A DNA stretch of 61,670 nucleotides, the filler included, from Globobulimina sp. (Eukaryota): NCBI GenBank assembly GCA_003354225.1. It is 15 parts of 15 records of this genome, joined end to end, with 100 filler letters (N's around TTAATTAATTAA, not from the genome) between each part and the next. Parts side by side here need not be neighbours in the genome. Positions count along the whole stretch, not along the records: positions 53,539 to 57,554 come from PIVH01001735.1; 14 more parts are not named here. One strand, given 5' to 3'. Below are positions 1 to 61,670 of the stretch, one piece after another. The position numbers were made by a program, and so were the translations under genes. Within the stretch, counting starts at the first letter, position 1, and each line of letters opens with the position of its first letter. The notes beneath the pieces were generated by a model that did not search any database, had not been told where the DNA came from, and saw nothing but the letters and a program-made list of their open reading frames with translations.

Positions 1-134
1 TCTTCGCCGTCGCTGGCAACGGTCACGAAGCGAAAGGATTTAAACGGCACGATAAAACAGCCGTTATTCCCCTGCTTTTCAGAACTGGCCGCCGGGCCGT
101 GCTTCTGTCGGTGCTGTTCCGGAACTTTAAACAT
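1..134 (-). CDS. Phage hypothetical protein, DUF7694-like (3' truncated)
   Basis: Manual translation MFKVPEQHRQKHGPAASSEKQGNNGCFIVPFKSFRFVTVASDGE. The GNNG-F...VASDG pattern is typical of this phage family. The ATG overlaps the upstream TAA (TAATG). Confidence 0.55.
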   Translation of the reverse strand, partial: MFKVPEQHRQKHGPAASSEKQGNNGCFIVPFKSFRFVTVASDGE

Positions 135-277
135 TAAAAAGCCTTTCTCAACAAAGTATGAACCAGTATTATTAGAAATGTTAATGTAAGATAAAGTATC
201 AAAACAGTACCCAAATTATCCGCTAATGTTACGAGCAACGGCGTCATAAAAGGAATTTGTTGTAATAATTTAATCAT
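134..277 (-). CDS. Small 47-aa phage membrane peptide
   Basis: MIKLLQQIPFMTPLLVTLADNLGTVLILYLTLTFLIILVHTLLRKAF. It exactly fills the gap between its neighbours, with TAATG overlaps at both ends. Confidence 0.55.
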   Translation of the reverse strand: MIKLLQQIPFMTPLLVTLADNLGTVLILYLTLTFLIILVHTLLRKAF

Positions 278-774
278 TACGCCCCCTTTCTTAAAGACCG
301 GGCCAGGTCTTCCACCTCATTTTCTACATAATTGATATCTCTGTAAATATCGCCGCCAATCCAGGAAAAACCGCCGTATTGTTCTTTTAATCTCAGATAT
401 TCCGGCACAAAATCACCGACATGGGCGCAATCAAACCCCAGCCACCAAACCCGCTTATAGGCGATATTTGAACCATGGTGACAAATGACGCGCAGACCTT
501 TAAATTTGCTGCACATCCTGGAAAAAGTCAGTCCGCCATGGGGGACTATATCGGGGAAAAGTTCATATATGTCATCGTCATTGCGTTTATAGGCCGGATG
601 AAACCACGGCACACCAACATAACCGCACAATGCGCCCATATGGTTGCGGATAATCAGCCCGTCATAGCCTGCGGCTGTGATCCATTGTTTGCGGTCTGGC
701 TCTGCCTGCCATGGCCCCGCTGGCAATTTCTTTTTAAGCTGATAATCGCGGCACGCTTTTTTTTGCTTTTTCAT
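277..774 (-). CDS. Conserved phage hypothetical protein
   Basis: 165-aa ORF with GPWQxEPD, LCGYVGVP, HGGLTF and WWLGFDCAH motifs, common in phage accessory proteins. Confidence 0.75.
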   Translation of the reverse strand: MKKQKKACRDYQLKKKLPAGPWQAEPDRKQWITAAGYDGLIIRNHMGALCGYVGVPWFHPAYKRNDDDIYELFPDIVPHGGLTFSRMCSKFKGLRVICHHGSNIAYKRVWWLGFDCAHVGDFVPEYLRLKEQYGGFSWIGGDIYRDINYVENEVEDLARSLRKGA

Positions 775-783
775 AATTATTTC

Positions 784-882
784 CTATGGTACCAAATTAT
801 CTTCTTTTTCTTGGCGTTTCATGCACCAATCCATATATCTTTGATATAATTTATTAAAAAGCTTTTTAATAATATTTAACAT
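784..882 (-). CDS. Small 32-aa phage peptide
   Basis: MLNIIKKLFNKLYQRYMDWCMKRQEKEDNLVP. The ATG overlaps the TAA of the HTH gene. Confidence 0.4.
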   Translation of the reverse strand: MLNIIKKLFNKLYQRYMDWCMKRQEKEDNLVP

Positions 883-1100
883 TAGGTTTTCTCCTTCAAA
901 TTTATCTCGATACAAGACCCGGCGCCTTTTAAAATATCTTCGACTTTTTCAACCGTTGTGAGCGTCGGCACGGTGCGCCCTTTGACGGCATTATGCAAAC
1001 CCGCCAGTGTTACCCCTGTTAATTGAGCAAGAGCGGGCATCTTTATGCCGTACTTCAGCGCCCGCCATTCCCATGATTTCGGTATGTCGGTAAATTTCAT
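882..1100 (-). CDS. Cro/XRE-like helix-turn-helix regulator
   Basis: 72 aa; LAQLTGVTLAGLHNAVKGRTVPTLTTVEKV matches the XRE HTH pattern. RBS AAGGTG upstream. First gene off the divergent promoter region. Confidence 0.75.
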   Translation of the reverse strand: MKFTDIPKSWEWRALKYGIKMPALAQLTGVTLAGLHNAVKGRTVPTLTTVEKVEDILKGAGSCIEINLKEKT

Positions 1101-1128
1101 TTAATCACCTTTCTATATGACTACGGTA

Positions 1129-1212
1129 AATATACATATATTTTTGCATAAGACAACTAATAAAATTTAATTCGCATTTTTATCTTGCGTTATAAATTAA
1201 AGTATATATATT
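1129..1212. promoter_or_regulatory. Back-to-back sigma70-like promoters
   Basis: Plus strand: TTGCGT(1185-1190)-N16-TATATT(1207-1212). Minus strand: TTGTCT(1156-1151)-N16-TATATT(1134-1129). AT-rich gap between divergent operons. Confidence 0.55.
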
Positions 1213-1233
1213 AAGCGTTGAAAGGAACAACAT

Positions 1234-1341
1234 ATGAAATCAATTACACAAGAAACACGCATTTTGGCCGGGGTTATATTAGCCTTCTCTTTTATTGCGA
1301 TGCTTTATGCCATATTATTGACAATAGGAGGATCTTTCTAA
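1234..1341 (+). CDS. 35-aa single-TM phage peptide
   Basis: MKSITQETRILAGVILAFSFIAMLYAILLTIGGSF; RBS AAAGGA; TAATG overlap with the next gene. Confidence 0.55.
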   Translation: MKSITQETRILAGVILAFSFIAMLYAILLTIGGSF

Positions 1342-1601
1342 TGTCTATGAATATTTCATTTAGCGCCGAAATCGGAAACAATGAATTTGAAATTGAAGCC
1401 GAAATTTCGGAACCATCCGACGATTTTTTAAACGGCGATTTACCGCCTGAAGGCCCGGACGTTGAAAGCATTGACGTTTATTTTGGCGGCGCTCTGTTGG
1501 ATATAAGCAGTTTTGCTTTTCTGACCTATCGCAACAAGCCGCAAAATCTGGACGATTATCTGGCGGAACTGGCAATTGAACAGTATGAAAGGCTGAACTA
1601 A
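1341..1601 (+). CDS. Small very acidic phage protein (86 aa)
   Basis: The true start is likely ATG 1341 (AGGAGG RBS upstream), not 1218. 19 D/E versus 3 K/R. Confidence 0.7.
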   Translation: MSMNISFSAEIGNNEFEIEAEISEPSDDFLNGDLPPEGPDVESIDVYFGGALLDISSFAFLTYRNKPQNLDDYLAELAIEQYERLN

Positions 1602-2362
1602 TGGGAAATTCTGTTACAAACTTACAAACAAGCAATCCGGCAATTTACACGCCGATGGACCTTTTAACCCAAGCCAGCAATAACGGCGCACCGCTGGAAA
1701 CACTCGAAAAATACATGGATATGCATGACCGCTGGGAAGCGGGCAACGCTAAAAAATCCTATCTGGTGGCCATGAATGATTTTAAAACCGACCCGCCGGT
1801 TATCCTTAAAACGAAACAGGTTAGGTTTGATACTAGGTCCGGCGATAGTGTCGGATACAAACACGCGGAACTTGGCCGCATTTGCGATTTAATCATTCCG
1901 GCGCTGTCTGCTCATGGCATAACCCATTGTTGGCAAACCCACCAGCCGGACGCCGGAACAATTGAAGTCACCTGCATTTTAACCCATGTAGACGGCCATT
2001 GTGAGAAAACCAAATTAAAAGGGCCGCCCGAAACGTCTGGCACCAAAAACAGCCTGCAAGCGATATCGTCAACCATCACCACGCTTGAACGTTATACCCT
2101 GCTTGCAGCGGTCGGCCTGGCCGCCTCTGATCAAGATGACGATGGCGCGGGCGCCGTTGACGGTTTCGGCGGTGTGTCCCGGTTTATCGATGAAAAACAG
2201 AAAGATATCTTGCTGGATAAAATGCGCGACGTTGGCGCCGATACCAAAGGTTTTCTAAACAGTTGCCGGGTTGAAACAATTGACCAGCTACCAAAAGATA
2301 AATTCCAGGGCGCATTGAACCGCCTGAACGCTAAAGGCGCTTTAAAAAGAGGAAAAAAATAA
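1601..2362 (+). CDS. ERF-family single-strand annealing protein
   Basis: HAELGRICDLIIPALSAHGI...VTCILTHVDGH...QAISSTITTLERYTLLAAVGLA...DDDG matches the ERF signature. Directly upstream of the exonuclease. Confidence 0.85.
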   Translation: MGNSVTNLQTSNPAIYTPMDLLTQASNNGAPLETLEKYMDMHDRWEAGNAKKSYLVAMNDFKTDPPVILKTKQVRFDTRSGDSVGYKHAELGRICDLIIPALSAHGITHCWQTHQPDAGTIEVTCILTHVDGHCEKTKLKGPPETSGTKNSLQAISSTITTLERYTLLAAVGLAASDQDDDGAGAVDGFGGVSRFIDEKQKDILLDKMRDVGADTKGFLNSCRVETIDQLPKDKFQGALNRLNAKGALKRGKK

Positions 2363-2991
2363 TGATTGTCCATGATGTAGAACAAAACAGTCCCGAATGG
2401 TACGCCTTGCGCGCCGGTATTCCAACCGCTTCAGCTTTTTCCCGTCTGGTAACACCAAAAGGAAAACCATCAACCCAAATAGAAGGCTATGCGATGACAC
2501 TGGCCGGTGAAAAATTCGCCGGTAAACAGGTTGACCCGTTTATGGGCAACGACTGGACAAATCGCGGCCACCTATTAGAAGAAGAGGCAACCGAATATTA
2601 CGAATTTGTCACCGGTAAAACAGTGGAAAAATCCGGCTTTATTACCGATAATAAAAAACGCGCCGGGTGTTCACCTGATCGCCTGATTGGCAAAGGCGGC
2701 CTTTTGGAAATCAAATGCCTGAAGGGCGAAAACCACATTAAGGCCGTGATGCATATCAAAGAAAATAATACCTGTCCCGATGATTATTATCTGCAAGTTC
2801 AGGGCCAATTGCTGGTGTGCGGAAAACGCTTTGTTGACGTGCTGTTTTATCACCCCTTGTTACCGTCTAAATTTGTTCGGGTTTATAAAGTTCCGGAAAC
2901 GCAAAAACTTTTACGCAAACAATTAAAACTGGTCAATAAACGCCGCGACAAAATATATTCTTTTTTGTCAGACGACAAAATGGCCGCATAA
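2362..2991 (+). CDS. YqaJ/lambda-exonuclease family protein
   Basis: QNSPEWYALRAGIPTAS, RGHLLEEEA, GCSPDRLI-GLLEIKC (PD-(D/E)xK) and QVQGQL motifs. Confidence 0.92.
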   Translation: MIVHDVEQNSPEWYALRAGIPTASAFSRLVTPKGKPSTQIEGYAMTLAGEKFAGKQVDPFMGNDWTNRGHLLEEEATEYYEFVTGKTVEKSGFITDNKKRAGCSPDRLIGKGGLLEIKCLKGENHIKAVMHIKENNTCPDDYYLQVQGQLLVCGKRFVDVLFYHPLLPSKFVRVYKVPETQKLLRKQLKLVNKRRDKIYSFLSDDKMAA

Positions 2992-2997
2992 AACAAC

Positions 2998-3023
2998 AGG
3001 CGCCCCCACCGGGCGCCTTTTTT
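2998..3023 (+). terminator. Rho-independent terminator, probably bidirectional
   Basis: AGGCGCCC-CCACC-GGGCGCCT stem-loop followed by a T run, between convergent genes. Confidence 0.85.
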
Positions 3024-3027
3024 ATTG

Positions 3028-4022
3028 TCAAAGCTCTGCTTCTGCCGTCGCTTGAACACCGTGATAACTGCCTGTTGCTGTACCTTGTAGCGCGGCACCA
3101 TTCGCAAGTTGACATCCTGACGCCGATATTAATGCCCCCGAACAAGCGATGTCTGCGCCCCCTGATGTTAAATTTGCATCTGAATTCGTTGTCATTTGTC
3201 CAGATGCACCCGTATCTGGAGAATATGTCGTTATCGTAGGAATTGCCAACATTTCTACAGGGAAACGCCAATCAGGGGAAAATATGTTAATATTTGTCGC
3301 AAGATACCCGCGAACGCGAAGGGCGCCATTCCCGACATTTGGAGTTCCTGGAATAGCGGCCATTGCATAAGTTTTAGAAAAATACCGCTGTGCCAAAGAA
3401 AGTTCACCGCCCAGGGTTCCCCTGGATGCGAGACTAAATTCTGTAGAGATAAGCCCAAATTCAGGTTTTAAAAATGTTATCTGTATTGTGTAGGTTGACG
3501 CCGCCGGAAAGAAAAGGCCAAACCTGAGATAATTACCTACCCCTATGGTTTTCCCTGAAACTGAAGGGATGGCAAATGTTACCGTGAATTCCTGCCAGGT
3601 TGTTGTGAATGTTACGGGACTTCCAGACGCAGCAACGGACGCAGAGCCACCAGAGCCAAAATTTTGTAATGTCCGAGGAATAATACTTTCTGTGCCAGAG
3701 GTTACGCGCCCCCAATAGGTAAATGTTATATTTCCATCCGAATGCATTTCAACATCTTCAATTCTTTGCAGTGTATTAGGCTCAAGTGTTGCTGATCCCG
3801 ATGATTGTACATGCTGAAGATAAAACTGCGCACCTGGGACGTCTGTTTGTCCTATCGTGAATTCTTCCTGTGTTATCGTTCCCGCCCCGCCGTCACTTGT
3901 CCGAAGATCAGAATAAAACCTGTCCAAAGTGTAGCCTGTGGCCGTAAAGGACAAGCCTCGCTGTGCAATGGCCATGTCACCATTAATAAACAAATTGCGA
4001 TTGATGTAGGCATCGGCATTAA
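3028..4022 (-). CDS. Phage tail-fibre/structural protein with carbohydrate-binding-like domain (5' truncated)
   Basis: The frame is open to the contig end. NRNLFINGDMAIAQRG...DRF...QRIEDV...ELSLAQRYF...AEAEL is a common tail-fibre C-terminal module. Confidence 0.7.
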
Positions 4023-4122
4023 NNNNNNNNNNNNNNNNNNNNNNNNNNNNNNNNNNNNNNNNNNNNTTAATTAATTAANNNNNNNNNNNNNNNNNNNNNN
4101 NNNNNNNNNNNNNNNNNNNNNN
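4023..4122. other. Artificial contig spacer (first of 14)
   Basis: 44 N + TTAATTAATTAA (stops in all six frames) + 44 N. Repeated at 8143, 12263, 16382, 20501, 24619, 28737, 32855, 36973, 41090, 45207, 49323, 53439 and 57555. Confidence 0.99.
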
Positions 4123-40918: not shown

Positions 40919-41724
40919 TGTCAAAGTTGCTTTTTTTTTTTTAGAAGGAAAGTTTTTTTTATTTTCAGTTGTTGAGTTTCTCAGCCTGCCTTTATTGAAA
41001 TTACGCAATTGCAACTAGTCAATTCTACCAAGCCACATCCACCACAACAAACAACATCTATAGCATGGCAACGATGAATAGTAACTTTANNNNNNNNNNN
41101 NNNNNNNNNNNNNNNNNNNNNNNNNNNNNNNNNTTAATTAATTAANNNNNNNNNNNNNNNNNNNNNNNNNNNNNNNNNNNNNNNNNNNNTACCGCTTTCT
41201 CTTTGCGATCAGCATATGCAAAGTTTAGATATGGTAATATTATACCCCATAAGTTTATCAATGATATAAAGAAGCAGTATTTATACATCTTCGATTGTAA
41301 GATGATGTACGTCATAATAATATGTATAAATAACATTGTATGTTACTTGCTTCTAGAAGAGATCCATATTTTGCAGCTCTTTCTTCATGCTCGCTATACA
41401 ACAAAAAATCACGAATGGTGTATTGAGTTAATGGACGTTGCCATTTTGTTAATATAATCGACACAATAAACATGTAAAATATGCCTTAGACAGGGGGTAA
41501 TCACATGTGATATAAATATATCAATGACGAATCACCCCTCACACCCCCGCACCCACCATATAATCAGGTGCACACGTGGAGATAAGTAAAGTAAACTAGT
41601 TAGTGATAAAAGTTTGTGTTTCAGTTTGTTTTCCTACAAAACAACTAAAGGACAAGACTTGAGTTGAGTCTGACCGTGTTTGTTTGAACAATGTACATAT
41701 CAAATCATAGCAAATCAAATCAAG

Positions 41725-43992
41725 TCAGGCCAAGCCAATGTTGTGTATGATATTATTCAGTTCCGTCCACTCAGTGTCATTTCTGTGGTGCTGGCACCGA
41801 CTTTGTATTTTCTGCAAAGCTTTCATTTCTTTGAGTCTTTTTTGATTGTAAAAATATTCTTCGTATCCAATCATTTGAATATGTTTGAGCCACACCTTGG
41901 CAGTGTTTGTGAAATATTTCAGACTCTCTTCGTTCTCATTCAGATTCTCGTAAACCACACCGATCTGATACTGCAAGTACGCATTTTCTTTCTTTTTTTC
42001 ACTCTCTTTTTCGAACGTTTTGTAGATGTCGAGGGCGTCGACAAAGTTCTGTTGCTGGACATGGACCTTGGCCAACAAAGTCAGGCATTTCTCGTCGGCC
42101 GGCTTGCTCTCCAAAATCTGCAGCAACTCAAACTTGCTTTTTTCATAAGCATCCAAATAAAAGTACGAAATGGCCAAATGATACTTGGCGAACATGTCGA
42201 AAGGCTCCAAATTCACCGCAAACTCCAAATGCTCCCTCGCCAAATCGTACTCCTTGCACAAAATGGCCATCCGCCCCGTTTCGAAGTGGATCTGATGCGA
42301 ATTGCCTTTGATTTTGCACAAATTCAGCATGCGGTCCAAGGCCTCGTCATAGCGGCCCAACGCCTCCAGGCACACATTGAGGCGGTCATAAATGGAGTCG
42401 ATCTCAATGCTCTCCACCGTCTGAAACATCTGATAGGCGCCGCTCCCGTCGCCGTCGCCGAGCAACATCTCCAAATATTCCACCGCCTCCTCCAGCTCCT
42501 CGGGGTTGTTGGCGCCGTGCTTTATCAACAAATTGCAGAGTTGCATGGTCGCCTCGGGCATATACATTTTGTTGCCGCTCTGCTTCAAAGTCTGCGCCAT
42601 CGCCATCCGGAACTCCTGCTTGGCTTCGCCGACTCGCCCCAGTTCGCCCAGGCATTTCCCGGCCAAATAGCGTAACTGCGCCGACCGCGGCAAATACTTC
42701 AAAGCTTCGCAGAAGGCGCCGTACGCCGCCTCGGTGTCGCCGCGCTGGAAATGTTCCTGTCCGATCCCCGCCAAACTGTCCACCAATTTGATGCCGTTCT
42801 GCAGCTTTTCGTCGTCGGAGTCGCCGAGTTTGCGTTTTATCTCCGCGATGTCCGGGTAGTTCCCGACCAAACCGATCAGGATGAACATGGCCAATTGCTT
42901 GAGCTGCACCGACCGCGCATCCAGCAGATTGAAGGCGAACTTCATGCAGTCGTTGTCGATGAGAATCTTTTTGATCTCCATGAAGTCCGGACTGATGCTG
43001 CTCTGCCGCTCGCGGGGCGGGTTTTTGTGCACAAAGTCGATGATGTATGCGGGATCCTGGTAAATCACCAACAAACTGGCCGCCAGATCGGGCCGCATCG
43101 TGGGCACATCCTCGCAGTGCTTCATCACCAACGCCACGCTGTGCGAGCCCTCCTTCGCCACCTCCAGGTTGGGGATGGCAGTCAGATCCAGCAACAGCTG
43201 CAAGCCGGCAAACAGCAGCTGTTGGTCCTTGGTCTCCCCACACAGCGAATAGATCATATTCAGGAACTTGGAGACTGTCCAGCCGCCGTCCTCTGCGCTG
43301 CCTTTGTAGCCTTTGAGGATCTCCAACTTCCTCAGACATTTATCGAAGAAGACGTCGGGAGGCAGCGTGTTGGTGTCGCCGCTCAACATTCCGATCAAAC
43401 AGCCCACCGCCACCATGCGCGTCTGCGACGGGTATTTCTTGTCCAATAAAGGCATGAAATGCTTCCACTGCGCCATGATTCGCGTCGGGCGATGGGAATG
43501 GATCTGCGCGGCCCACAGCATCGGCAACGTTTGCGCCCAACTCGGGGCTGGGTTTAATCCGTTTTTGTTTGCATCTCCGTCCGCGTCCGCATCGGCATCG
43601 GCATCGCGGTCATAGTCGTCGGGCAAGGGGTACTTTGCCAGTTTTTTGAGGCAATAAACGTATGGGATGTCGCTGTCGTGCAACGCGAATAAGCCGGTGC
43701 TGATGGCGAAGGGGATGCCGATTAACATCAACATTCTGCGGAATTTATAACGTTTCATCCGCCACCAATCGGAGGAGCCCCATTTGGAGGACGAGGTGGT
43801 GGCAGCGGCAGTTTCAGCGATTTGCAGGGATTCGGACTGCGTTTCTATGGATTTTAATTTTTTGACTTTGATTTTGGTTTTTTTACCTTTGGGGGTTGAT
43901 AATAAACGGACGTTGTTGTATATTGAGGGGGTTACTCTGCGACTGGCTATGTGTGATATACGTTGCAATGGTGGACGCAGAAGGAATGACAT
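41725..43992 (-). CDS. TPR-repeat protein with predicted mitochondrial presequence and one TM
   Basis: 755 aa; Arg/Ser-rich N-terminus; LMLIGIPFAISTGLFAL; several 34-aa TPR-like units. Confidence 0.8.
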   Translation of the reverse strand: MSFLLRPPLQRISHIASRRVTPSIYNNVRLLSTPKGKKTKIKVKKLKSIETQSESLQIAETAAATTSSSKWGSSDWWRMKRYKFRRMLMLIGIPFAISTGLFALHDSDIPYVYCLKKLAKYPLPDDYDRDADADADADGDANKNGLNPAPSWAQTLPMLWAAQIHSHRPTRIMAQWKHFMPLLDKKYPSQTRMVAVGCLIGMLSGDTNTLPPDVFFDKCLRKLEILKGYKGSAEDGGWTVSKFLNMIYSLCGETKDQQLLFAGLQLLLDLTAIPNLEVAKEGSHSVALVMKHCEDVPTMRPDLAASLLVIYQDPAYIIDFVHKNPPRERQSSISPDFMEIKKILIDNDCMKFAFNLLDARSVQLKQLAMFILIGLVGNYPDIAEIKRKLGDSDDEKLQNGIKLVDSLAGIGQEHFQRGDTEAAYGAFCEALKYLPRSAQLRYLAGKCLGELGRVGEAKQEFRMAMAQTLKQSGNKMYMPEATMQLCNLLIKHGANNPEELEEAVEYLEMLLGDGDGSGAYQMFQTVESIEIDSIYDRLNVCLEALGRYDEALDRMLNLCKIKGNSHQIHFETGRMAILCKEYDLAREHLEFAVNLEPFDMFAKYHLAISYFYLDAYEKSKFELLQILESKPADEKCLTLLAKVHVQQQNFVDALDIYKTFEKESEKKKENAYLQYQIGVVYENLNENEESLKYFTNTAKVWLKHIQMIGYEEYFYNQKRLKEMKALQKIQSRCQHHRNDTEWTELNNIIHNIGLA

Positions 43993-44288
43993 TTTTTGTT
44001 GTTGGTTTGGGTGTTGGTGTTTGGTGGATTGGTATGGGAAATTTCTGGAGATTTCAAGTGTTTCTCTATTACTGATTGGTGGTGTGGTTTATATTTATAT
44101 TTGGGTGGGTTTGGTTGATTGAATGTGTTGTTGTTTGGTTTTGATTATTTGATGCAGCTTGGGAGAATAGACAGAATGTGCAGTTTTGGTCGATGATGGA
44201 AAACTTGATTTTCAGCCCAAAAACTCCAGCACAAAATAACTGAATCTTTGCAAATAACTGGTGAGAGAGTTGTTGGTGACTGGTTTTG

Positions 44289-44737
44289 ATGATGAATAGT
44301 TTGATAAGCTTACCACATGAAATATTGGCTCAAATTATATTTTGTTTAGGTTTTAAGGATGTCATTGTATTACGTATGTTATTGCTTTGTTGGTTTTGTA
44401 TTTGTGAATTGATAAGAAAATTATTGAAGGGCAAACAAATAAATTAATGAATGGATTGGTAGGTTTACAAATGGATATTATCCAAGAAAGGGATGAAAGA
44501 GAGAGACAATGGATGTTATTAAAGGACCAACACAATAAGTGTGGTTTTAGAAATGTCGAATCATCCGTTGATAATCACGCATTTGAACAAGGTGTAAAAG
44601 ATGCTTATGTTAAACATTGTAATTTGTCTTTTATTGATGGACAATGGAAAGGATATACCTTGTTAGGTTTTGTGTATTATTCTGTATTTAATGCAGTTAC
44701 GTTTATTGAATTGTTAACAGTGCAAAAATGTCATTAG
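44289..44737 (+). CDS. Possible small F-box-like protein (splice structure uncertain)
   Basis: MMNSLISLPHEILAQIIFCLGFKDVI (F-box-like), then ORF 44447-44737. Confidence 0.3.
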
Positions 44738-44905
44738 GCAATTAACGAAATTTACATATGGTTATCATTGATGGTTCAAGCAATGACATGTCGCGTATTT
44801 ATCCAGCACTCAATCAAACATTGACATTGTCAAAAATTAGTTGGTTACGGTCAGTCAAACATGTCACTTTTAAAAATTAACGCGACATAATAATTATAAT
44901 AATTG

Positions 44906-45206
44906 TCATCTTTGATCCGTAGAGCCATAGTTCGCTTTTGAATGTCTGGCATTTTTTTCCTTTTTTTCCATCAAATCATATCCTTCCTTCATAGTTTTCA
45001 TCTCATTTTTCCAATCCGTACAAGTCCAATAAAGCGCAGACAACAAACACCAAACCAAAAACGCGCCGGCTTCTCCAAACCAAATGCCATAAAACTTCCA
45101 TTTTGCAACAAAACCTAAAATAATCGACAAGATCAAGCCAACGATGTAATAGCCTATCAACATAAATGTGCCGCCGCGAGCCAACCTCCCCACCGATACA
45201 AAAATG
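44906..45206 (-). CDS. MATE-family transporter C-terminus (5' truncated)
   Basis: GR..RGG..MLIGYYIVGL.L...LGF...W...GIW.G is typical of MATE TM11-12. Confidence 0.7.
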
Positions 45207-45306
45207 NNNNNNNNNNNNNNNNNNNNNNNNNNNNNNNNNNNNNNNNNNNNTTAATTAATTAANNNNNNNNNNNNNNNNNNNNNNNNNNNNNNNNNNNNNN
45301 NNNNNN

Positions 45307-51708: not shown

Positions 51709-51990
51709 GATGAGATAAAATTTATATATTTCAACAAATAAAAAGCAAAGCAATTGGAAACTGGGGGATTTAAGCAAATATTCTTTCTTTTTTTATGCGC
51801 CTTTTTTATGCGCATACTTTGAGTGTATACAATTATGCTTATCGCCGAAAACGTTTTTGCAAATTTCGGAGATAAACGCATATTTATTTTTGTTTTCCAT
51901 AATAACTAATTAAACACTCACTTTTTTAAACCAATATATAAGGAACAAACATATAAATCGAGCCATCCAAAAGTCAGAAACGACGCAAGG

Positions 51991-53438
51991 ATGAGAGCAA
52001 TCTACGCAAAATGGAAAGATATGGACGTGCCAGAATTACCCCCTTGTTGGGATTTGCCGGCCGAGAGATATATTCATGCAATGGACACATTGCCAGACGG
52101 GAAAACAGGAAATATTGGATTCCCAGACAAAGAAAACAAGAAAAAAATGGTGGACTTACTAAAAAACGGTGCCACAATAACAAAAAACCAGAGACCAAAG
52201 CTGGAGACAAGAAATGATATTGAATATCCACTGACGATTGACCAACACATCAAAAAATGTGAAATAATCCAGAAACGCATTAAAGACAAAGCAATCTGGG
52301 GTCCGCCTCATCAAAATAATATGCCAGAAGGTTATGAGGATTACCATATCAATCCGATATTTATGAAGAACGATACGCCGATAGATAACCCAGAAAAAGA
52401 AAAGCATCGAATCATTGTCGATTGCTCAAAGTCAAATAATGTCGGCTTTGCCCCAAATGATAATATCTTTGATGATGAAAAAAGCTGCGAATACACCACC
52501 ATATTAGACATAGTCAGATTGATTGTAACGTGCGGTATAAAATGGATGGTCGCAGCCGACGCACAAAACGCATTCAATCGAGTGCCCATTGAAAGAAGTT
52601 TCATAAAATGGTTTGGAACCAGAATTGGAGAATGGATATTTTTGTGGACGGCACTAGTTTTGGGAGTGGCGTCAAGCTGTAATATATATTCATTATTCGC
52701 AGCGACGGTCGCCTGGATAATAGTGAATTCGTTCCAGTACTTATTTTACATCGGAAACAAGTGTATATTGAGAAACTATTTAGACGATTTTTTTGCGGGC
52801 CACCATGATGAGAATAAATGTTGGCAGCAATATTATGCAATAAAATGGATGTTTGGATACTTAGGAATCCCGACACAGAAACGAAAAATGATAACTCCGA
52901 CCCAAATATTAATATGGATCGGATTTATAATAAATTGTATTGAAAATTATTTGGCGATACCAAGAGCCAAAATAATTAAAACAACGATAAAAGGGAGATA
53001 TTTGGAGAAATTACACAAACAAAAGACCAGAGCCAAAGCAAAAGATATTTCTTCGTTTGTAGGGATAGCGAGACATATATCGTATGTCCATTATTATATA
53101 ATCCCTGCACTGCGACGTTTGGAGGAGGCCATAGCAGGAAAGGAGCCAATGGACACTGTAAGGATAACAGTGGAAATGGCGCGAGATATAAATATGATAT
53201 TGGTCCCAATATTGGACCCAACAAAGAATAGAATTCCGTTCAAATGGCTGTTATATGACAAAGCCAGTTCGGACTTAATAATTGAAACCGACGCATCGGG
53301 AAAAATCGGCTTAGGAGGCATTGAGATGAGGGATGGAGGCATATTCTATGCCACTTTCTATAATGAATTGACAGAGTGGGACTATCAAAACCCACCGGAT
53401 ATTGTTTATTTAGAATTATTCTTGGCACTAAAGCGTTG
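51991..53438 (+). CDS. Reverse transcriptase-RNase H, DIRS-type (3' truncated)
   Basis: KHRIIVDCS, ADAQNAFNRVPI, LGVASSC, NYLDDFF, WIGFII, ETDASGKIGLGG, IVYLEL. Confidence 0.9.
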
Positions 53439-53609
53439 NNNNNNNNNNNNNNNNNNNNNNNNNNNNNNNNNNNNNNNNNNNNTTAATTAATTAANNNNNN
53501 NNNNNNNNNNNNNNNNNNNNNNNNNNNNNNNNNNNNNNATAATTTTTGTAAAGAAATTCAATTATTTAATTTTATAATACACTAGTTTTAAAAAAAAAAT
53601 CGTACAAAA

Positions 53610-55040
53610 TTACAATCCATAACTTTTTGATTGTAATATTTTGATATTATTTACAAATGTTTTCCAATGATTGATCAATATCAACCTATAAATTTCATGT
53701 TCAATCTGTTTAATATATGGACAAAATGTGCATATGCATTATGTACAAATTACAAAAACACGGAAACAAAATATATCAAAAAGAAACGAATTAAACTTCA
53801 GAAAAAAATTGAGCATCGATATCGAGTGGTTGTTTAGCTTTAAATTGTTGTTCCAATTCTTGCATCGCGTTTAATACCTCAATAAAAGAAAAAACATACA
53901 AAAATATTGCGACAGATACTTGACAAATTATACGTGTACTTAACGCACATTTTGTCGAACTTGATAGGAGAGGTTAAGAGTAAAAGTGGCGTCTGGATCA
54001 ACTGAAGTGGCCATAATCTGTCTGCCAACCATAAATCTCTGAACCTCCGTCGGTTGGTTTTTAAATTTACAGACCATCTCTAAAAACAAAACAATTTCAT
54101 CACAAAATGTTTGTTTTAGGTATTGGTAGAAATATTCTTTCCCAGTTCTTGATTGTAAAAAACTGCTCAAATTGGAGAGAAATTGAATATCATTTTCGTT
54201 TTGAAATGACTTTGCGATGTCATGTAACTGTGCACAATAACTGATATCCTGTCCGCTCATAATCTGTGCAGCCACAGAAAATATTTCATCAAATGCATAT
54301 TTTACTTCAATGGTATATTTTTTAGGAAAATAATGAGTCAAGTAATGGGTGGAAATGGTGCATTCTAACACCCATATTTTGGTGTAATACGCCTAAGTTT
54401 GTTAATAATAGATACAAATCGATATCATCAACGAGCAAATTTCGAAATAACCATCCAATCATATCCAAATATTTTAAACTTTTTTCTTTAATATTTTTAT
54501 TATTTTGCTTCAAGTTACCAATCATTATTTGCTTCATTTCTTTGTTTGCGGACATTGCACCAAAAAATATGGAGCAACCAATTTCCTGTTTGTTGTATAT
54601 ATTAAATATATTATATACATATAATTATGTGTACATTTAACTAATTGTTGCTCCATGCCCACGTTTTCCATATTTCTATGCCAGAATTTTGCAGCAATTT
54701 TACTGATTCTGCTGTGGATATGCGTTCCCGTGATACCATTCGTTATATTTGAATAGGAACTGTTATTCTTTTTAAGTTGAGGTTTAAACATAGAAAGTGA
54801 TGGTAATGTGGAATGGTCAACAGTTTGATCAGAAACAGGGCTTATTTCAGAAAGCGGAGGAATTGATTTTTTCGATGATAATCTTGCAGTAAAAGTATAC
54901 GTTGAACTTGGCGAAACAACTTGTTTCTCGTCATTGGCAATTGAGACTGTTGGTGTTGACATAAATGTAGAGGTTGGTGTTGATATCGCTGTTTGATGCA
55001 CAGCGATCGGTGTGATTTCAGTTGATTTTTGGTTGCCCAT
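53610..55040 (-). CDS. Myristoylation motif-globin-RGS fusion (introns 54586-54641, 53878-53948, 53706-53796; one frameshift near 54335)
   Basis: MGNQKS; globin LTNLGVLHQNMGVRMHHF..YTIEVKYAFDEIF; RGS GKEYFYQYLKQTFCDEIVLFL..LNLSYQVR..FSEIEHEIYRLI..HWKTF. Confidence 0.72.
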
Positions 55041-55116
55041 TCTATAGCATTTAAAAAGAAGCTGAGAAATAATATTTTAAAAACCCGTACTTGAAGTACA
55101 GTACACTACATATAAA

Positions 55117-57009
55117 ATGAACAATTTACGTCGTGTTGCCAATAAAGGCACCTCTGTTTATAGGACCATACCATTACTTTTATTTGTAAATCCTGCCAAA
55201 TTTCATTATTCTGCCATGTCAAACGAATTGCCAACAACCAAACACATCCCACAACCAAACTATTTGGATATATTGTTAGATAATATACCCGCACCATGGG
55301 CAAATACACAAACTAAAGACATATCAGATACCACCGCTGCATTTAAAAAATGGATACAATTTCGACATTTGTCAGAAGAGGATGGCAAAATGCTAAACAC
55401 ATTGAAAGAACACATAATAAATGGCGGACATCCGGATTTTCCGCGGCTAACAAAAGACAACAACAACAACAAATGTTTAAAACATTGGACCGATGATTAC
55501 TACACAAGCATAGACACGAAATGTTTCCAATGGCTCAAAAAACAAAGACAATTATATAGGAACAAGAGTATCCATCCATGGTTGCATTGGAAACTCTTGC
55601 AATTAAACGTGACTCTAAAATGGTTTGCAATATATATAATACATAAAATTTCTTGAAAATTCTGAGAAATTAAACCTTCCCTATTTAGGACCAGAGAGCC
55701 TTTGCAAGACCGCGATTTCCGATGGATGGGATACTATGACGATGTGTTAAATAATGCCGACACAGCATCACTTTGTGCGGAATCTGACCCGTTGTTCCCA
55801 TTGCATTCCAGCGACGAGCCGTTATTGAAATTTTTAAATCCATTTTATGAGCTTTGGTACGAAAACATGCCACAAACATTGAAACAACTAAGATTAATAA
55901 ATGCGAACAAAGAACCGCCAAATGAGGGCTATACGGACAAAGACGATATTCGCGCCACGCGAATCATAAAACGATACGACACAGAAACGCATGAATGGAG
56001 ATATTATATCGGAGCGAAGAATATCGACCAACAAAAAATCGACGCTGAAATATTACATAAATCGAATGGAAACGCAGAGAATGAGCAGAATGGAAATGAA
56101 AAGGATCCGATTCTACGGACTTCCTATTTAGGCAAAGATTTATATGATAAAAATAGTTATTCGTTGGCGGAAATGAATGAATTGTTGGCGGACAAAGAAA
56201 AGATGAATGAATTAGGCGTTGAGAGCATGAATTATTTGCGGGCGAAAGAGACAAAAAAAGAAATGAAAGATAGTTTTGAGAGCGCAGCGGTGAGACCAAC
56301 ATATTCAAAAAGACAACGCGCGGAATATTTCATTGAAGCGTTGAAACGCGATTTGATCGAAGCGTCGCATTTGAATTTGAAGGAACTGATATTAATTATT
56401 CAACATTTGGGATTGGAGTACCATCCGAAGCAGAATCCGAATGCAAAGCGAATGAATGATTACATGCCATATTCGTCGCCAATGAAACGGAAAGAAGCGA
56501 AAACAAAATGGAATGACTGGAATGGAAATAAGGCAGTGGAGATCTACGAGTTTCGCCCACAGAGATATACGGATAGGAACGGCGTGTTCAGTGAGTTGGA
56601 CATCTATCACAAGACCAGGCATCCAGGCCAACCGCCGTGGGGAGTTTGGGAGATTCCGGAGCCAAATTTGGATGTGGAATACTTTCAAATCAAAGTCGAA
56701 GCGTATTTGAAATGTTGGAGACAGAGCGCCGAAGGAAGGCAGTTTATCAAAAATCAGTTGCAAAGGAAGGATTGGGATGGCGCACAATGCGAGAAATTAA
56801 AGAAAGGGATTGAATTATTGAGGGAAGAGAAAGCAAATAAATGTGAGAAAATCAATGACAACAAACAGTTTAGATATAAATTTGGGAATGACATTGCGTG
56901 GCAGCCACAATGCAAAGAAAAGACTTTGGAAATACAGAAATTGAACTGTGAGTGCCAACAAATTGAGGAGATATTAGAGAGTGTGTACAGATATAATGCT
57001 CTCTGTTAA
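55117..57009 (+). CDS. Hypothetical protein, possibly mitochondrion-targeted (intron 55623-55688)
   Basis: The two ORFs join in frame (..VTLKW|TREPLQD..) via GT-AG; Arg-rich N-terminus. Confidence 0.7.
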
Positions 57010-58959: not shown

Positions 58960-59355
58960 ATAATAATTAATCGATAATATATAATTTTAAGGGCGCCGTG
59001 GCCCGTCGATAAATATTAAATTAATGTTTTGTAGCAAATGCTTGAAATATTGATTCCCTACATTTTAAATCGTATCCTTATGCTAATCCAGACTCCATTG
59101 TTTTTGATGATAAGAGTAGCTGCAAAACATTTCGCATTGACTGGATATTCGCACTTTATTATTATTATTGCTCAGAAACATAAAAATATGAACAGAATAT
59201 GTAGAATCAACAAGTACGACCATATGGCATCACCATAGGCTGGTAATAAAATCGACACATAACGCAGTCAGTAATTTAGAAATGAATTATGAGATTACAT
59301 GATGATGATGTCAGATGTCAGATACATGAATTAAAATTACTAAATCTGTAACAAT

Positions 59356-61670
59356 ATGCAACAAGTGATATCCAGTCGCAATCGCAAAAAACGTGCTCGT
59401 CACAACCAAGTTCACATGAACTCGAATAGCAACTCAGCATTAGAGGCAAGACTCGATATAGAATCAATTAGCGTTGTTCGCAAACAAACGGAACTCGGAG
59501 ACAATGATCGAGCATTAAGACATTCAAAATCGTTGCCACACACTATAAACAGTGTAAATACATTTAATGAACTTTCCAGCAAAAAACACAAATCCGACGC
59601 TGATATTACCGGCAAATCAGACATTTCAATGAATAATCTAAATCTACAAAATCCACCAACAAATGTTGATGTAAATACTGCCCAACAACAAAATGATAAT
59701 ATGGATTCTCACACATACTCCGCAATAAGTGCTTTATTAGAAATACGCAGAGATACTACACTAAATTCAACGGGCTCATTATTGGGACAATTAACTAACA
59801 AAATAATGCCAACCAACAAAAACAAAACCAAAGAGCAAAAAAAATGGAAACCTCGAACTATGAGAATCAGTTCGGATTTAACTGCATTATCAACGTATAA
59901 AACTCAAATGTTGGCCTCGGAAAATGATTCATGTTTGCCGTCGATAATGGTATTTCATCCATATTCCGGACCGCGAATGATTTGGGATCTGACCATAATA
60001 TTTTTAATATTATACACTGCCATCGCTGTCCCGTTACGATTAAGTTGGTCGTTACCAGAAACCTTCGTATTTTGGATATTTGATCGTTTCTTAGATTTGA
60101 TGTTCATCATCGATATATTTATAAATTTCAACACCGCATTTGAACGAGGTACAGAACTCATTGTTGATAGGAAAGAAATCACGCAAAATTATATAAGGAC
60201 ATGGTTTTTATTAGATTTTGTTGCTTCTGCTCCATTTGATTTTTGTATGGCGGTTATAAATGGTGGCGATATGTTAGATTTTGCCAATAATTCTAATCCT
60301 TCTTCGTTATCTTTATTACCGCGCTTAGTGCGCTTATTTAAGTTATCGCGACTGTTCAGATTGGCGAGATTGCAGAGAATATTACGAAGAGTACAGCTAC
60401 AAATAGGAATTCGCAACAGCACCAATAAGATATTAAAATTCTCAGGTTCTGCGATATTATGTGCACATTGGATGGCGTGTATGTTTTACGCAACTTCTAC
60501 TTTTTCAGCCAGCAACGATTTGGGAGATTTTCCGAGTTGGGTGGAAAGATTAAATGAAAACGGCAAAAACCAACTAGACTCCAACAATGTCGCGCATACT
60601 TACATTGCAGCATTATACTGGTCATTAACCACTATGACAAGCATCGGCTACGGCGATGTTTCTCCCAAGACGCCGGCAGAAAGAATATTTGGTATTTTTG
60701 GTATGATTTGTGGAGCTGTTTTATTTGGCCATTTCATGGGCAATGTATTAGCTGTTGTGGCAGATATGAGTCCCGCTGAAAATGAATTTCATTTAAAAAT
60801 GGATATGTTGAATGTTTACATGAAAGAACAAAACTTGCCGACTGAGCTACGGCGACAAATTGAAGAATTCTATCACGTCGAACATAAATTGAATAATCAC
60901 CAGGTGGATGAAGCGGAAATGTTACGTGAAATACCGGACAGATTGAAAAGAGAATTATCATTGGCGATAAGTAAGCGGATATTGGGCAATGTGCCATTGT
61001 TTGATGGGATGAGTTCATCCTTTGTTCGCACTGTTGGATTGTCGATGGAACGGAGGATTTATCCGCAAGGCGAGTATGTGATACGCGAAGGAGAAGAAGT
61101 TAATCAATTTTATATATTAACTGCCGGTCGCGCCTATTTGCTGCAAAATGGAGCAGTGATTGGTGCCATTTCGAATGGTGACTATTTTGGTTCGATCCCA
61201 ATTCATTGGCAACAATTCCAACAAACTGCAAAATCAACTTATTCTGTCCGGACATTAGAATGGACGGAAGTTCGTAGTTTATCGATTTCGCGCTTTCGAC
61301 AATTAATTGTAGAATTTCCTGATGCCAAAGATATACTAATTGCGAGAATCGTGGATAACATTTTGGAGCAAAACAAGCAGACATTAGACGAAGGTGCCTC
61401 TGAATCAGCCGCACCATCAAAAGAAAGTAATCAGAACAAGTATGAAATGACAAAGGATAGTCATAATATAGAGATCGAGAGTTCTGACCGAAATCTGAGA
61501 AGGTCTTTATCTGCGGATGTCGATAGAAATCAGTTGATACGTTATGTTGAAAACGCATTATGTCTGAATGAGAATAGTCAGAATATGACACCTACAAATA
61601 ATAAAACATCAAATCCTGAATTGCAAAAAGGATATGAGGCCACTTCGATTCTGAAAGATCTGAAAAAGTT
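59356..61670 (+). CDS. Voltage-gated K+ channel, CNBD (EAG/KCNH-like) family, 3' truncated; absent from the ORF track
   Basis: Manually read open frame: WD..I, S4 RLVRLFKLSRLFRLAR, pore YWSLTTMTSIGYGD, C-linker, CNB-like GDYFG. Confidence 0.92.
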   Translation, partial: MQQVISSRNRKKRARHNQVHMNSNSNSALEARLDIESISVVRKQTELGDNDRALRHSKSLPHTINSVNTFNELSSKKHKSDADITGKSDISMNNLNLQNPPTNVDVNTAQQQNDNMDSHTYSAISALLEIRRDTTLNSTGSLLGQLTNKIMPTNKNKTKEQKKWKPRTMRISSDLTALSTYKTQMLASENDSCLPSIMVFHPYSGPRMIWDLTIIFLILYTAIAVPLRLSWSLPETFVFWIFDRFLDLMFIIDIFINFNTAFERGTELIVDRKEITQNYIRTWFLLDFVASAPFDFCMAVINGGDMLDFANNSNPSSLSLLPRLVRLFKLSRLFRLARLQRILRRVQLQIGIRNSTNKILKFSGSAILCAHWMACMFYATSTFSASNDLGDFPSWVERLNENGKNQLDSNNVAHTYIAALYWSLTTMTSIGYGDVSPKTPAERIFGIFGMICGAVLFGHFMGNVLAVVADMSPAENEFHLKMDMLNVYMKEQNLPTELRRQIEEFYHVEHKLNNHQVDEAEMLREIPDRLKRELSLAISKRILGNVPLFDGMSSSFVRTVGLSMERRIYPQGEYVIREGEEVNQFYILTAGRAYLLQNGAVIGAISNGDYFGSIPIHWQQFQQTAKSTYSVRTLEWTEVRSLSISRFRQLIVEFPDAKDILIARIVDNILEQNKQTLDEGASESAAPSKESNQNKYEMTKDSHNIEIESSDRNLRRSLSADVDRNQLIRYVENALCLNENSQNMTPTNNKTSNPELQKGYEATSILKDLKK

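Follow-up and report, generated by a model that had tools for sequence, protein, structure and literature searches.

A stretch of DNA from Globobulimina sp. (assembly GCA_003354225.1), 61,670 nucleotides long and hereafter called the window, carries on its minus strand, from 55040 to 53610, a four-exon gene whose product of about 410 residues joins a globin to a regulator of G-protein signalling (RGS) domain. The protein runs from MGNQKS, a candidate N-myristoylation start, through a Ser/Thr/Pro-rich linker and a full 3-on-3 globin to a short conserved linker and the RGS domain. The locus is a transcribed and correctly spliced gene, and the multigene family around it comprises at least 67 two-domain proteins; all those with a species name are from Foraminifera. 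The architecture is almost certainly real and functional in the family. That these proteins are haem-gated RGS regulators of G-protein signalling is plausible, and we would put it a little short of an even chance.

The first-pass annotation proposed four open reading frame (ORF) pieces spliced through GT-AG introns, and the joints in spliced contigs from three public runs (X2, X6 and X8) fall exactly at these introns. Exon 1 (54642..55040, minus strand as for all features of the gene; 133 codons) begins with the ATG at 55040 and encodes MGNQKS, the disordered linker and the globin A helix (..ISKIAAKFW..), residues 1-100 including 43 that are Ser, Thr or Pro; its end at 54642 is confirmed by the spliced contigs of all three runs. 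Intron 1 (54586..54641; 56 nt, GT..AG, phase 0) is joined from 54584 to 54641 (cut +1) in the same runs. Exon 2 (53949..54585), which measures 637 nt in the window and 657 nt in an X2 contig, encodes globin helices B to H, the short conserved linker and the RGS helices up to ..LNLSYQVRQN. It contains the proposed proximal (F8) His codon at 54382..54384, in LGVLHQNMGV, and the Asn codon of LNLS at 53973..53975, which HMMER alignments to RGS2, RGS8 and RGS10 identify as the equivalent of RGS4 Asn128. Intron 2 (53878..53948; 71 nt, GT..AG, phase 0) is joined in X2 and X6 from 53875 to 53948 with one letter in between, which differs from the window base at 53876. Exon 3 (53797..53877; 27 codons) covers the region of RGS helices 6 and 7, VLNAMQELEQQFKAKQPLDIDAQFFSE. 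Intron 3 (53706..53796; 91 nt, GT..AG, phase 0) is joined from 53705 to 53797 in X2 and X6. Exon 4 (53610..53705) comprises 31 codons and a TAA stop (53612-53610); the final RGS helices, IEHEIYRLILINHWKTF, and with them the conserved motif L..NHW.KF lie here. The MGNQKS start, the Ser/Thr linker and the globin-like motifs are all present as first described: LGVLHQNMGV is followed by HHF and then, in another reading frame, by the H-helix sequence YTIEVKYAFDEIF. The RGS motifs of the gene are FYQYLKQTFCDEIVLFL and LNLS, with IEHEIYRLI in the last exon.

Four public runs, X1, X2, X6 and X8, were aligned to 53545-55300; X2, X6 and X8 belong to three different studies. X1, the likely source sample, is DNA-like; its contigs show no splicing and differ from the window at 54160 alone. 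X2, from a study other than that of X1, is more than 99% identical to the window; its contigs skip exactly the three predicted introns, and it has zero cover over intron 3 and over the 5' intergenic bin, which fits RNA. Contigs of X2 and X6 show every one of the three joints, those of X8 only the first. It had been considered that globin and RGS might turn out to be separate genes; the spliced contigs that carry all joints (X2, X6) show a single one. X6 and X8 carry a variant that is 95-99% or 90-95% alike, with an indel in the linker that keeps the frame (2 + 7 nt = 9 nt). Among the 35 variant sites in the coding model, 28 fall on third codon positions, and they do so on both sides of the frame break described below; together with the in-frame indel, this points to selection on the protein. 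The coding region is evidently under purifying selection, as chance would not yield such an excess of third-position changes. At 54430-54488 the depth rises to 110-200, compared with about 15-35 around it, and some contigs match 54444-54485 only and then diverge. Other paralogues in the same runs therefore share this conserved stretch of the E helix.

When the RGS-bearing fragment of the window was used as query, three longer proteins were retrieved, one of which (P0002) matches both Pfam Globin and Pfam RGS above the cut-offs. With P0003, a protein of Ammonia, as query 25 relatives were obtained; 21 of them were aligned, the partial sequences P0015, P0023, P0024 and P0025 being left out. A profile search of 1.84 billion representatives gave 373 matches at E<=0.001, 91 of them at E<=1e-30. 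Both domains are covered by 67 of the 170 collected proteins that match the family profile, and all conservation counts given below out of 67 refer to columns of these two-domain members; the remainder are mostly fragments, and four are giant multi-globin proteins without RGS. The intact orthologues that the first-pass annotation suggested looking for in foraminiferal sequences thus exist in number. Twenty proteins were looked up: the 15 named clusters are always from Bolivina argentea, Nonionella stella, Ammonia sp. or Elphidium margaritaceum, while the other five comprise two entries called 'hemoglobin-like flavoprotein', one uncharacterised RefSeq record and two unnamed ones. No member of the family exceeds about 50% identity to the window protein, which hence represents a different lineage of the group. 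A tblastn search of the window with four family members matches the exon 2 stretch, and the window holds one copy of the gene. Five longer members (P0087, P0108, P0037, P0039 and P0067) measure 661-974 amino acids, and two of them have an extra full-length RGS match upstream of the globin; they could be genuine multi-domain proteins or chimeras that arose when transcripts were assembled.

The copy in the window is interrupted. The frameshift that had been noticed in the G helix, with the advice to check the reads near 54335, is a deletion of 20 nt at 54331..54332 (minus strand), absent from X2 and shared by X1. It is flanked by a 3-nt ATT repeat, and short flanking repeats are typical of slippage deletions. 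In the X2 contig, 20 extra letters behind 54331 (depth 31.8 of 31.8) restore the frame; with this insert the translation, read by eye, is ..LLDS LHQTLSYY FPKK.., which fits the orthologue consensus ..MLQAMHETFSYYF... Contig 5 of X1 agrees with the deletion with 0 differences, and X6 is uninformative at the break, as the contigs listed for it end at 54314 and pick up again at 54346. Since the spliced X2 contig carries the 20 letters and reads through, an intact gene exists. The window probably holds an allele or copy that has suffered the deletion, the intact form being expressed by the organism or by close kin. A reading of the 20 letters as an intron or as the product of RNA editing was rejected, since the spliced contig has them and the DNA-like one lacks them, the reverse of what an intron gives.

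A second discrepancy lies at 54160, where the window has A (+ strand) and X1, X2 and X6 have C. The window codon (minus strand) accordingly reads Phe, and that of the runs and of the family reads Cys; the residue corresponds to C281 of P0003, and 65 of 67 members have Cys there. As X1 itself contradicts this base, the assembly is imperfect at this locus. We regard it as fairly probable that the window holds a dead allele, a pseudogene or an assembly defect rather than a working gene, a judgement that concerns this locus only. The deletion throws the coding sequence out of frame and costs it part of the G helix, it recurs without differences in X1, and the Phe at 54160 replaces a nearly invariant residue. 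On the other side, the rest of the gene is open with its splice sites intact, and the contradiction by X1 at 54160 shows the assembly to be imperfect here. Moreover, contigs drop rare variants, which leaves room for a second, intact allele in X1, and the nearly identical X2 has the intact form.

In N-myristoylation motifs, Met-Gly at the start goes together with a position 6 that is small or carries a hydroxyl group. A Met-Gly start is found in 48 of the 67 members, with Ser or Thr at position 6 in 27 of these 48 and Ser, Thr, Ala, Gly, Cys or Asn in 37. Judged by this pattern, MGNQKS of the window is an N-myristoylation-type start. A Cys anywhere in residues 3-8 occurs in only eight of the 48. 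Among globins, globin X is myristoylated and membrane-bound according to a globin review (PMC7475203).

The globin domain was modelled with AlphaFold for the orthologue P0003 from the 21-sequence alignment and not for the broken window copy (pTM 0.71). Residues 1-99 of P0003 are disordered and the rest of the model is confident, with pLDDT mostly above 90 in the globin domain; the globin occupies about residues 109-254 and the RGS domain about 272-400. The globin fold expected by the first-pass annotation is borne out by this model: its residues 110-251 align to 129 of the 131 residues of Hell's Gate globin I (3s1i_A; Z 14.5, root-mean-square deviation 1.9, 23% identity), and hundreds of haemoglobins and neuroglobins match at Z 13-14, neuroglobin structures being among the best fold matches (1oj6_D, E 3.2e-03; 7ohd_B, Z 14.1). 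At the sequence level, the family profile matches Hell's Gate globin I with E 5.3e-07, and Pfam Globin (PF00042) matches P0002 with 30.2 bits against a cut-off of 22. The 87-residue globin exon of the window, scanned alone, had no Pfam match; exon 1 and exon 2 share the domain between them, and the frame break interrupts it. The globin identity therefore derives from the orthologues, the family profile and the fold. Pfam Protoglobin was matched in none of the 21 aligned members at E<=0.01, PF00042 being the only globin family found. On these matches of sequence and fold the globin is classed as a divergent myoglobin/flavohaemoglobin-like one and not as a member of the sensor (protoglobin-like) lineage. 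The F8 column is His in 62 of 67 members, within the family motif L-G-x-x-H-x-x-x-G, and the window His aligns with that of ..LGRRHKQYGV.. in 3s1i. At E11, 49 of 67 members have Tyr or Phe. Conservation extends to hydrophobic positions of the pocket (F121, W122, I141, M175 and L215), to a His-Glu pair on the G helix and to several surface residues. An ESM Atlas look-up with residues 100-410 of P0003 returned no usable match, and a complex prediction of the globin part with the RGS part and haem scored 0.00, which carries no weight either way.

The RGS domain is matched by Pfam RGS (PF00615) in the window fragment (E 5.2e-08; 33.7 bits, cut-off 23.9) and in 20 of the 21 aligned members. Foldseek matches the RGS part of the P0003 model to RGS8, RGS16, RGS1 and RGS4 with target TM scores of 0.81-0.86 (2ode_B 0.85, 1agr_E 0.81), and the best PDB sequence match of this part by the family profile is RGS2 (E 1.1e-06). 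Gap-free alignments to five RGS proteins set the family motif W-C-D-E-[I/M/L] against F-[S/C]-E-E-N. The equivalent of RGS4 Glu87 is Glu in 60 of 67 members. The Asn of LNLS, which stands opposite the Asn of the ..INI/VNI.. motif in RGS2, RGS8 and RGS10 and corresponds to RGS4 Asn128, is Asn in 54. The equivalent of RGS4 Leu159, L386, is invariant in the 21-member alignment; Leu159 and Asp163 were mapped by extending the 1agr_E match (profile 256-372 to RGS4 49-153) without gaps, not from a printed alignment. On the three segments through which RGS4 contacts G-alpha, the conserved columns are Cys (62 of 67), Glu (60), Asn (54), Asn (53), Trp (64) and Phe (63). The most conserved RGS columns thus lie on the canonical G-alpha face, where one key contact is altered throughout the family, in a conserved way. 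Two cysteines of the RGS part are nearly invariant (C281 of P0003 in 65 of 67, C300 in 62 of 67), and one of them occupies the G-alpha-contact position of RGS4 Ser85; a redox or S-nitrosation role is conceivable from their conservation. RGS2 likewise carries Cys where RGS4 has Ser85 and, as far as the extended mapping goes, resembles the family in having Asn in place of Asp163; a look-up in the literature, PMC7572916 included, did not confirm these RGS2 residues.

We propose that myristate would anchor the protein at the inner face of the membrane, beside the heterotrimeric G proteins, and that the conserved F8 His would let the globin coordinate haem. Depending on its bound ligand or redox state (O2, NO, CO, ferric or ferrous), the haem could then alter the G and H helices of the globin, and this change could pass through the short conserved linker to the RGS domain, whose engagement of G-alpha would be tuned as a result, either as acceleration of its GTPase or as competition with effectors. 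In organisms that move along sediment gradients of O2 and nitrate, such a switch might steer motility or metabolism. RGS proteins are the regulated step where G-alpha activates itself (PMC3386157, PMC9283941), and rhizarians have expanded sets of G-alpha and RGS proteins (PMC3971589).

Several findings weigh against haem gating of an active RGS domain. Two of them concern the data at the locus. X2, X6 and X8 were taken as RNA from their splicing, the kind of run not being on record, and a Pfam scan of 23 window ORFs (20 of the 45 of at least 170 amino acids, and three others) found no G-alpha. Others concern the globin. Pfam Globin was matched at E<=0.01 in only five of the 21 aligned members, and five of the 67 two-domain members have Tyr in place of the F8 His. 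The CD1 position, assigned by eye from helix spacing, is Met in the window, as the first-pass annotation had remarked; this presumed column is Met in 22, Leu in 19 and Phe in 17 of the 67, and Phe is absent from it in 50. Residues vary in the column that lines up with E7 of Hell's Gate globin I (Thr 16, Leu 13, Gln 7, others).

These features of the globin would suit a haem-free fold, acting as a structural or ligand-binding module that regulates the RGS domain by a signal other than a gas, in the manner of RsbR or photoglobin. The divergence of the domain, the scarcity of Phe at the presumed CD1, the unsettled E7 column and the five members without F8 His all speak for it, and families of non-haem globins exist (PMC8717448). 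However, the F8 His is kept in its motif in the other 62 members, the hydrophobic pocket is conserved, and the fold matches haem globins over the whole domain. We consider a haem-free globin improbable.

The remaining adverse findings concern the RGS domain. At the equivalent of RGS4 Asn88 the window has Ile (..FCDEIV..), and the family has Ile in 27, Met in 14 and Leu in 12 members, with Asn in one of 67; at the presumed equivalent of Asp163 it has Asn in 53 and Asp in one. Asn128, Asn88 and Asp163 are described as the three critical G-alpha contacts (PMC8252600), and the RGS4 double mutant E87A/N88A is reported to lose GTPase-activating protein (GAP) activity (PMC10794492). With a hydrophobic residue at the Asn88 position in nearly all members, the GAP activity of the family is uncertain. 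The first-pass claim of a complete RGS domain accordingly stands as to motifs, fold and Pfam match, and fails as to catalytic completeness, the equivalent of Asn88 being Ile.

The RGS-homology domains of GRKs and axin are docking modules. The foraminiferal proteins could likewise be membrane-anchored working globins (NO dioxygenases, nitrite reductases, or scavengers of peroxide or lipid radicals, roles that have been proposed for globin X) that carry an RGS-homology module for docking to a G-alpha or some other partner, its GAP activity having been lost. The missing Asn88 equivalent in 66 of 67 members suits this explanation, as does the presence of axin among the weak profile matches (1emu_A, E 0.044), and not all RGS domains are GAPs (De Mendoza et al., PMC3971589). 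An acylation motif of this kind is shared with globin X, which has been linked to protection from reactive oxygen species (PMC7475203), and denitrifying foraminifera handle NO and nitrite. Against it, GAP-active R4 proteins (RGS2, RGS18, RGS16, RGS1 and RGS8) head the matches by sequence and by fold, well above axin, and the equivalents of Glu87, Asn128 and Leu159 are strongly conserved. Nor would a plain enzyme need dozens of paralogues with a conserved RGS face. An anchored enzyme with a docking module is, in our judgement, rather unlikely.

A further explanation would make the protein a double regulator of G-alpha, with the RGS domain acting on G-alpha-GTP and the globin serving as a neuroglobin-like guanine nucleotide dissociation inhibitor (GDI), a redox-gated analogue of RGS12 and RGS14, which combine RGS with GoLoco. 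Neuroglobin, for which GDI activity towards G-alpha-i/o has been reported (PMC4842972), provides a reported functional link between a globin and heterotrimeric G proteins, as separate proteins unlike the fusion described here. The neuroglobins 1oj6_D and 7ohd_B among the best fold matches, the conserved His-Glu pair on the G helix and the conserved surface residues would be in keeping with such a role. Yet neuroglobin is no closer than many other globins, Z scores being tied within 1, and binding of G-alpha by the globin part is hypothetical. We give this explanation very little credence, and return to the putative haem-gated RGS regulator in comparing the family with known systems.

Bacteria and archaea have haem-based globin sensors, whose known outputs are of the chemotaxis, cyclase and kinase kinds. 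The globin-coupled sensors of these organisms (HemAT, the diguanylate-cyclase and the histidine-kinase types) likewise place an N-terminal globin and a C-terminal signalling output in one chain. Their output is under the control of the haem ligand (PMC7475203), and the same idea is carried over to the globin-RGS proteins here as a proposal. Their globin is protoglobin-like, whereas that of the present family is of the PF00042 type, with its best matches in myoglobin/flavohaemoglobin-like proteins. The family further differs in its RGS output, which is absent from the outputs named in the accessible part of the globin review (PMC7475203), in its eukaryotic host, in its lipid-anchor motif and in its long disordered tether. 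The first-pass framing as a globin-coupled sensor hence applies to the order of globin and output, and does not extend to the globin, which is not of the sensor type; the family resembles these sensors without being one of their members.

Globin X of metazoans shares with the family a 3-on-3 globin, an N-terminal Met-Gly acylation motif (PMC7475203) and a neuroglobin-like structural neighbourhood. It is a single domain without RGS, whereas the globin-RGS proteins are fusions. It is also palmitoylated at Cys3, and few of the Met-Gly members have a Cys in that region, as noted above. Androglobin is another chimeric globin of eukaryotes (PMC7475203), fused to a calpain-like protease domain and not to a regulator of G proteins. 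With the R4-type RGS proteins (RGS2, RGS4, RGS8 and RGS16) the family has in common the nine-helix fold and the equivalents of Glu87, Asn128 and Leu159; it differs in the hydrophobic residue at the Asn88 position, in some 11 additional residues inserted between helices 6 and 7, and in its N-terminal partner, a globin instead of an amphipathic helix. The seven-transmembrane (7TM) RGS proteins, AtRGS1 and the 7TM RGS of Naegleria, also join a membrane sensor module to an RGS box, and there deactivation is the regulated step where G-alpha activates itself (PMC3386157, PMC9283941). Their sensor is a 7TM receptor for signals from outside, whereas that of the present family would be a cytosolic haem domain held by a lipid.

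The first-pass annotation did not recall this architecture as described, and our search of the full-text literature likewise found no description of a globin-RGS fusion; subscription reviews, supplements and domain databases were beyond its reach. The available passages of a 2020 globin review and of a 2014 survey of the evolution of G-protein signalling contain no such fusion, and the word 'globin' occurs 0 times in the foraminiferal papers that the search found.

The window consists of 15 contigs of about 4.1 kb, split by 14 runs of N, each with a TTAATTAATTAA linker (14 sites at 4067-57610, 0.08 expected). As it is made of joined separate contigs, gene order across the linkers carries no meaning, and the true genomic context of the globin-RGS gene extends from 53539 to about 57555 only. 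This contig also carries a divergent neighbour gene (55117-57006, plus strand), whose start lies some 75 nt away from that of the globin-RGS coding sequence; its 5' end is covered in X2 and X6, and its two long ORFs have no Pfam match. The adjoining contig contains a long ORF (51910-53421, plus strand) with a reverse-transcriptase domain (RVT_1, E 5.9e-07), which is probably a retroelement. Two contigs, 1-4060 and 41150-45250, stand out by a G+C content of 0.43-0.47 and up to 0.53, against about 0.33 elsewhere; they encode an ORF of the ERF-superfamily recombinases and a TPR protein, and may come from associated bacteria or phage and not from the protist. The last contig encodes, at 59344-61668 (plus strand), a cyclic-nucleotide-binding ion channel (Ion_trans and cNMP_binding), another signalling gene of the same organism.

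To our knowledge, gas input to the G-protein pathways of eukaryotes is largely uncharted, the one proposed link between a globin and G-alpha being neuroglobin, where the two are separate proteins. A natural fusion of globin and RGS, conserved and multiplied in a lineage known for anoxic life, makes such a link experimentally tractable and offers a candidate oxygen or NO sensor for foraminiferal ecology. Should the RGS part prove inactive, the family would still represent a new kind of membrane-tethered chimeric globin. In its widest form, which we put forward as possible and rather doubtful, the lipid-anchored putative haem-globin-RGS family of Foraminifera would provide a direct gas or redox input to heterotrimeric G-protein signalling: the state of the haem would gate the shut-off of G-alpha at the membrane, in place of the receptors used by animals, paralogues would span a range of ligand affinities, and the system would steer the pseudopodial network and metabolic switching along sediment gradients of O2, nitrate and NO. 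If this is true, Foraminifera would have supplied the first globin-coupled sensor of a eukaryote, and also the first sensor of gases with G proteins as its output.

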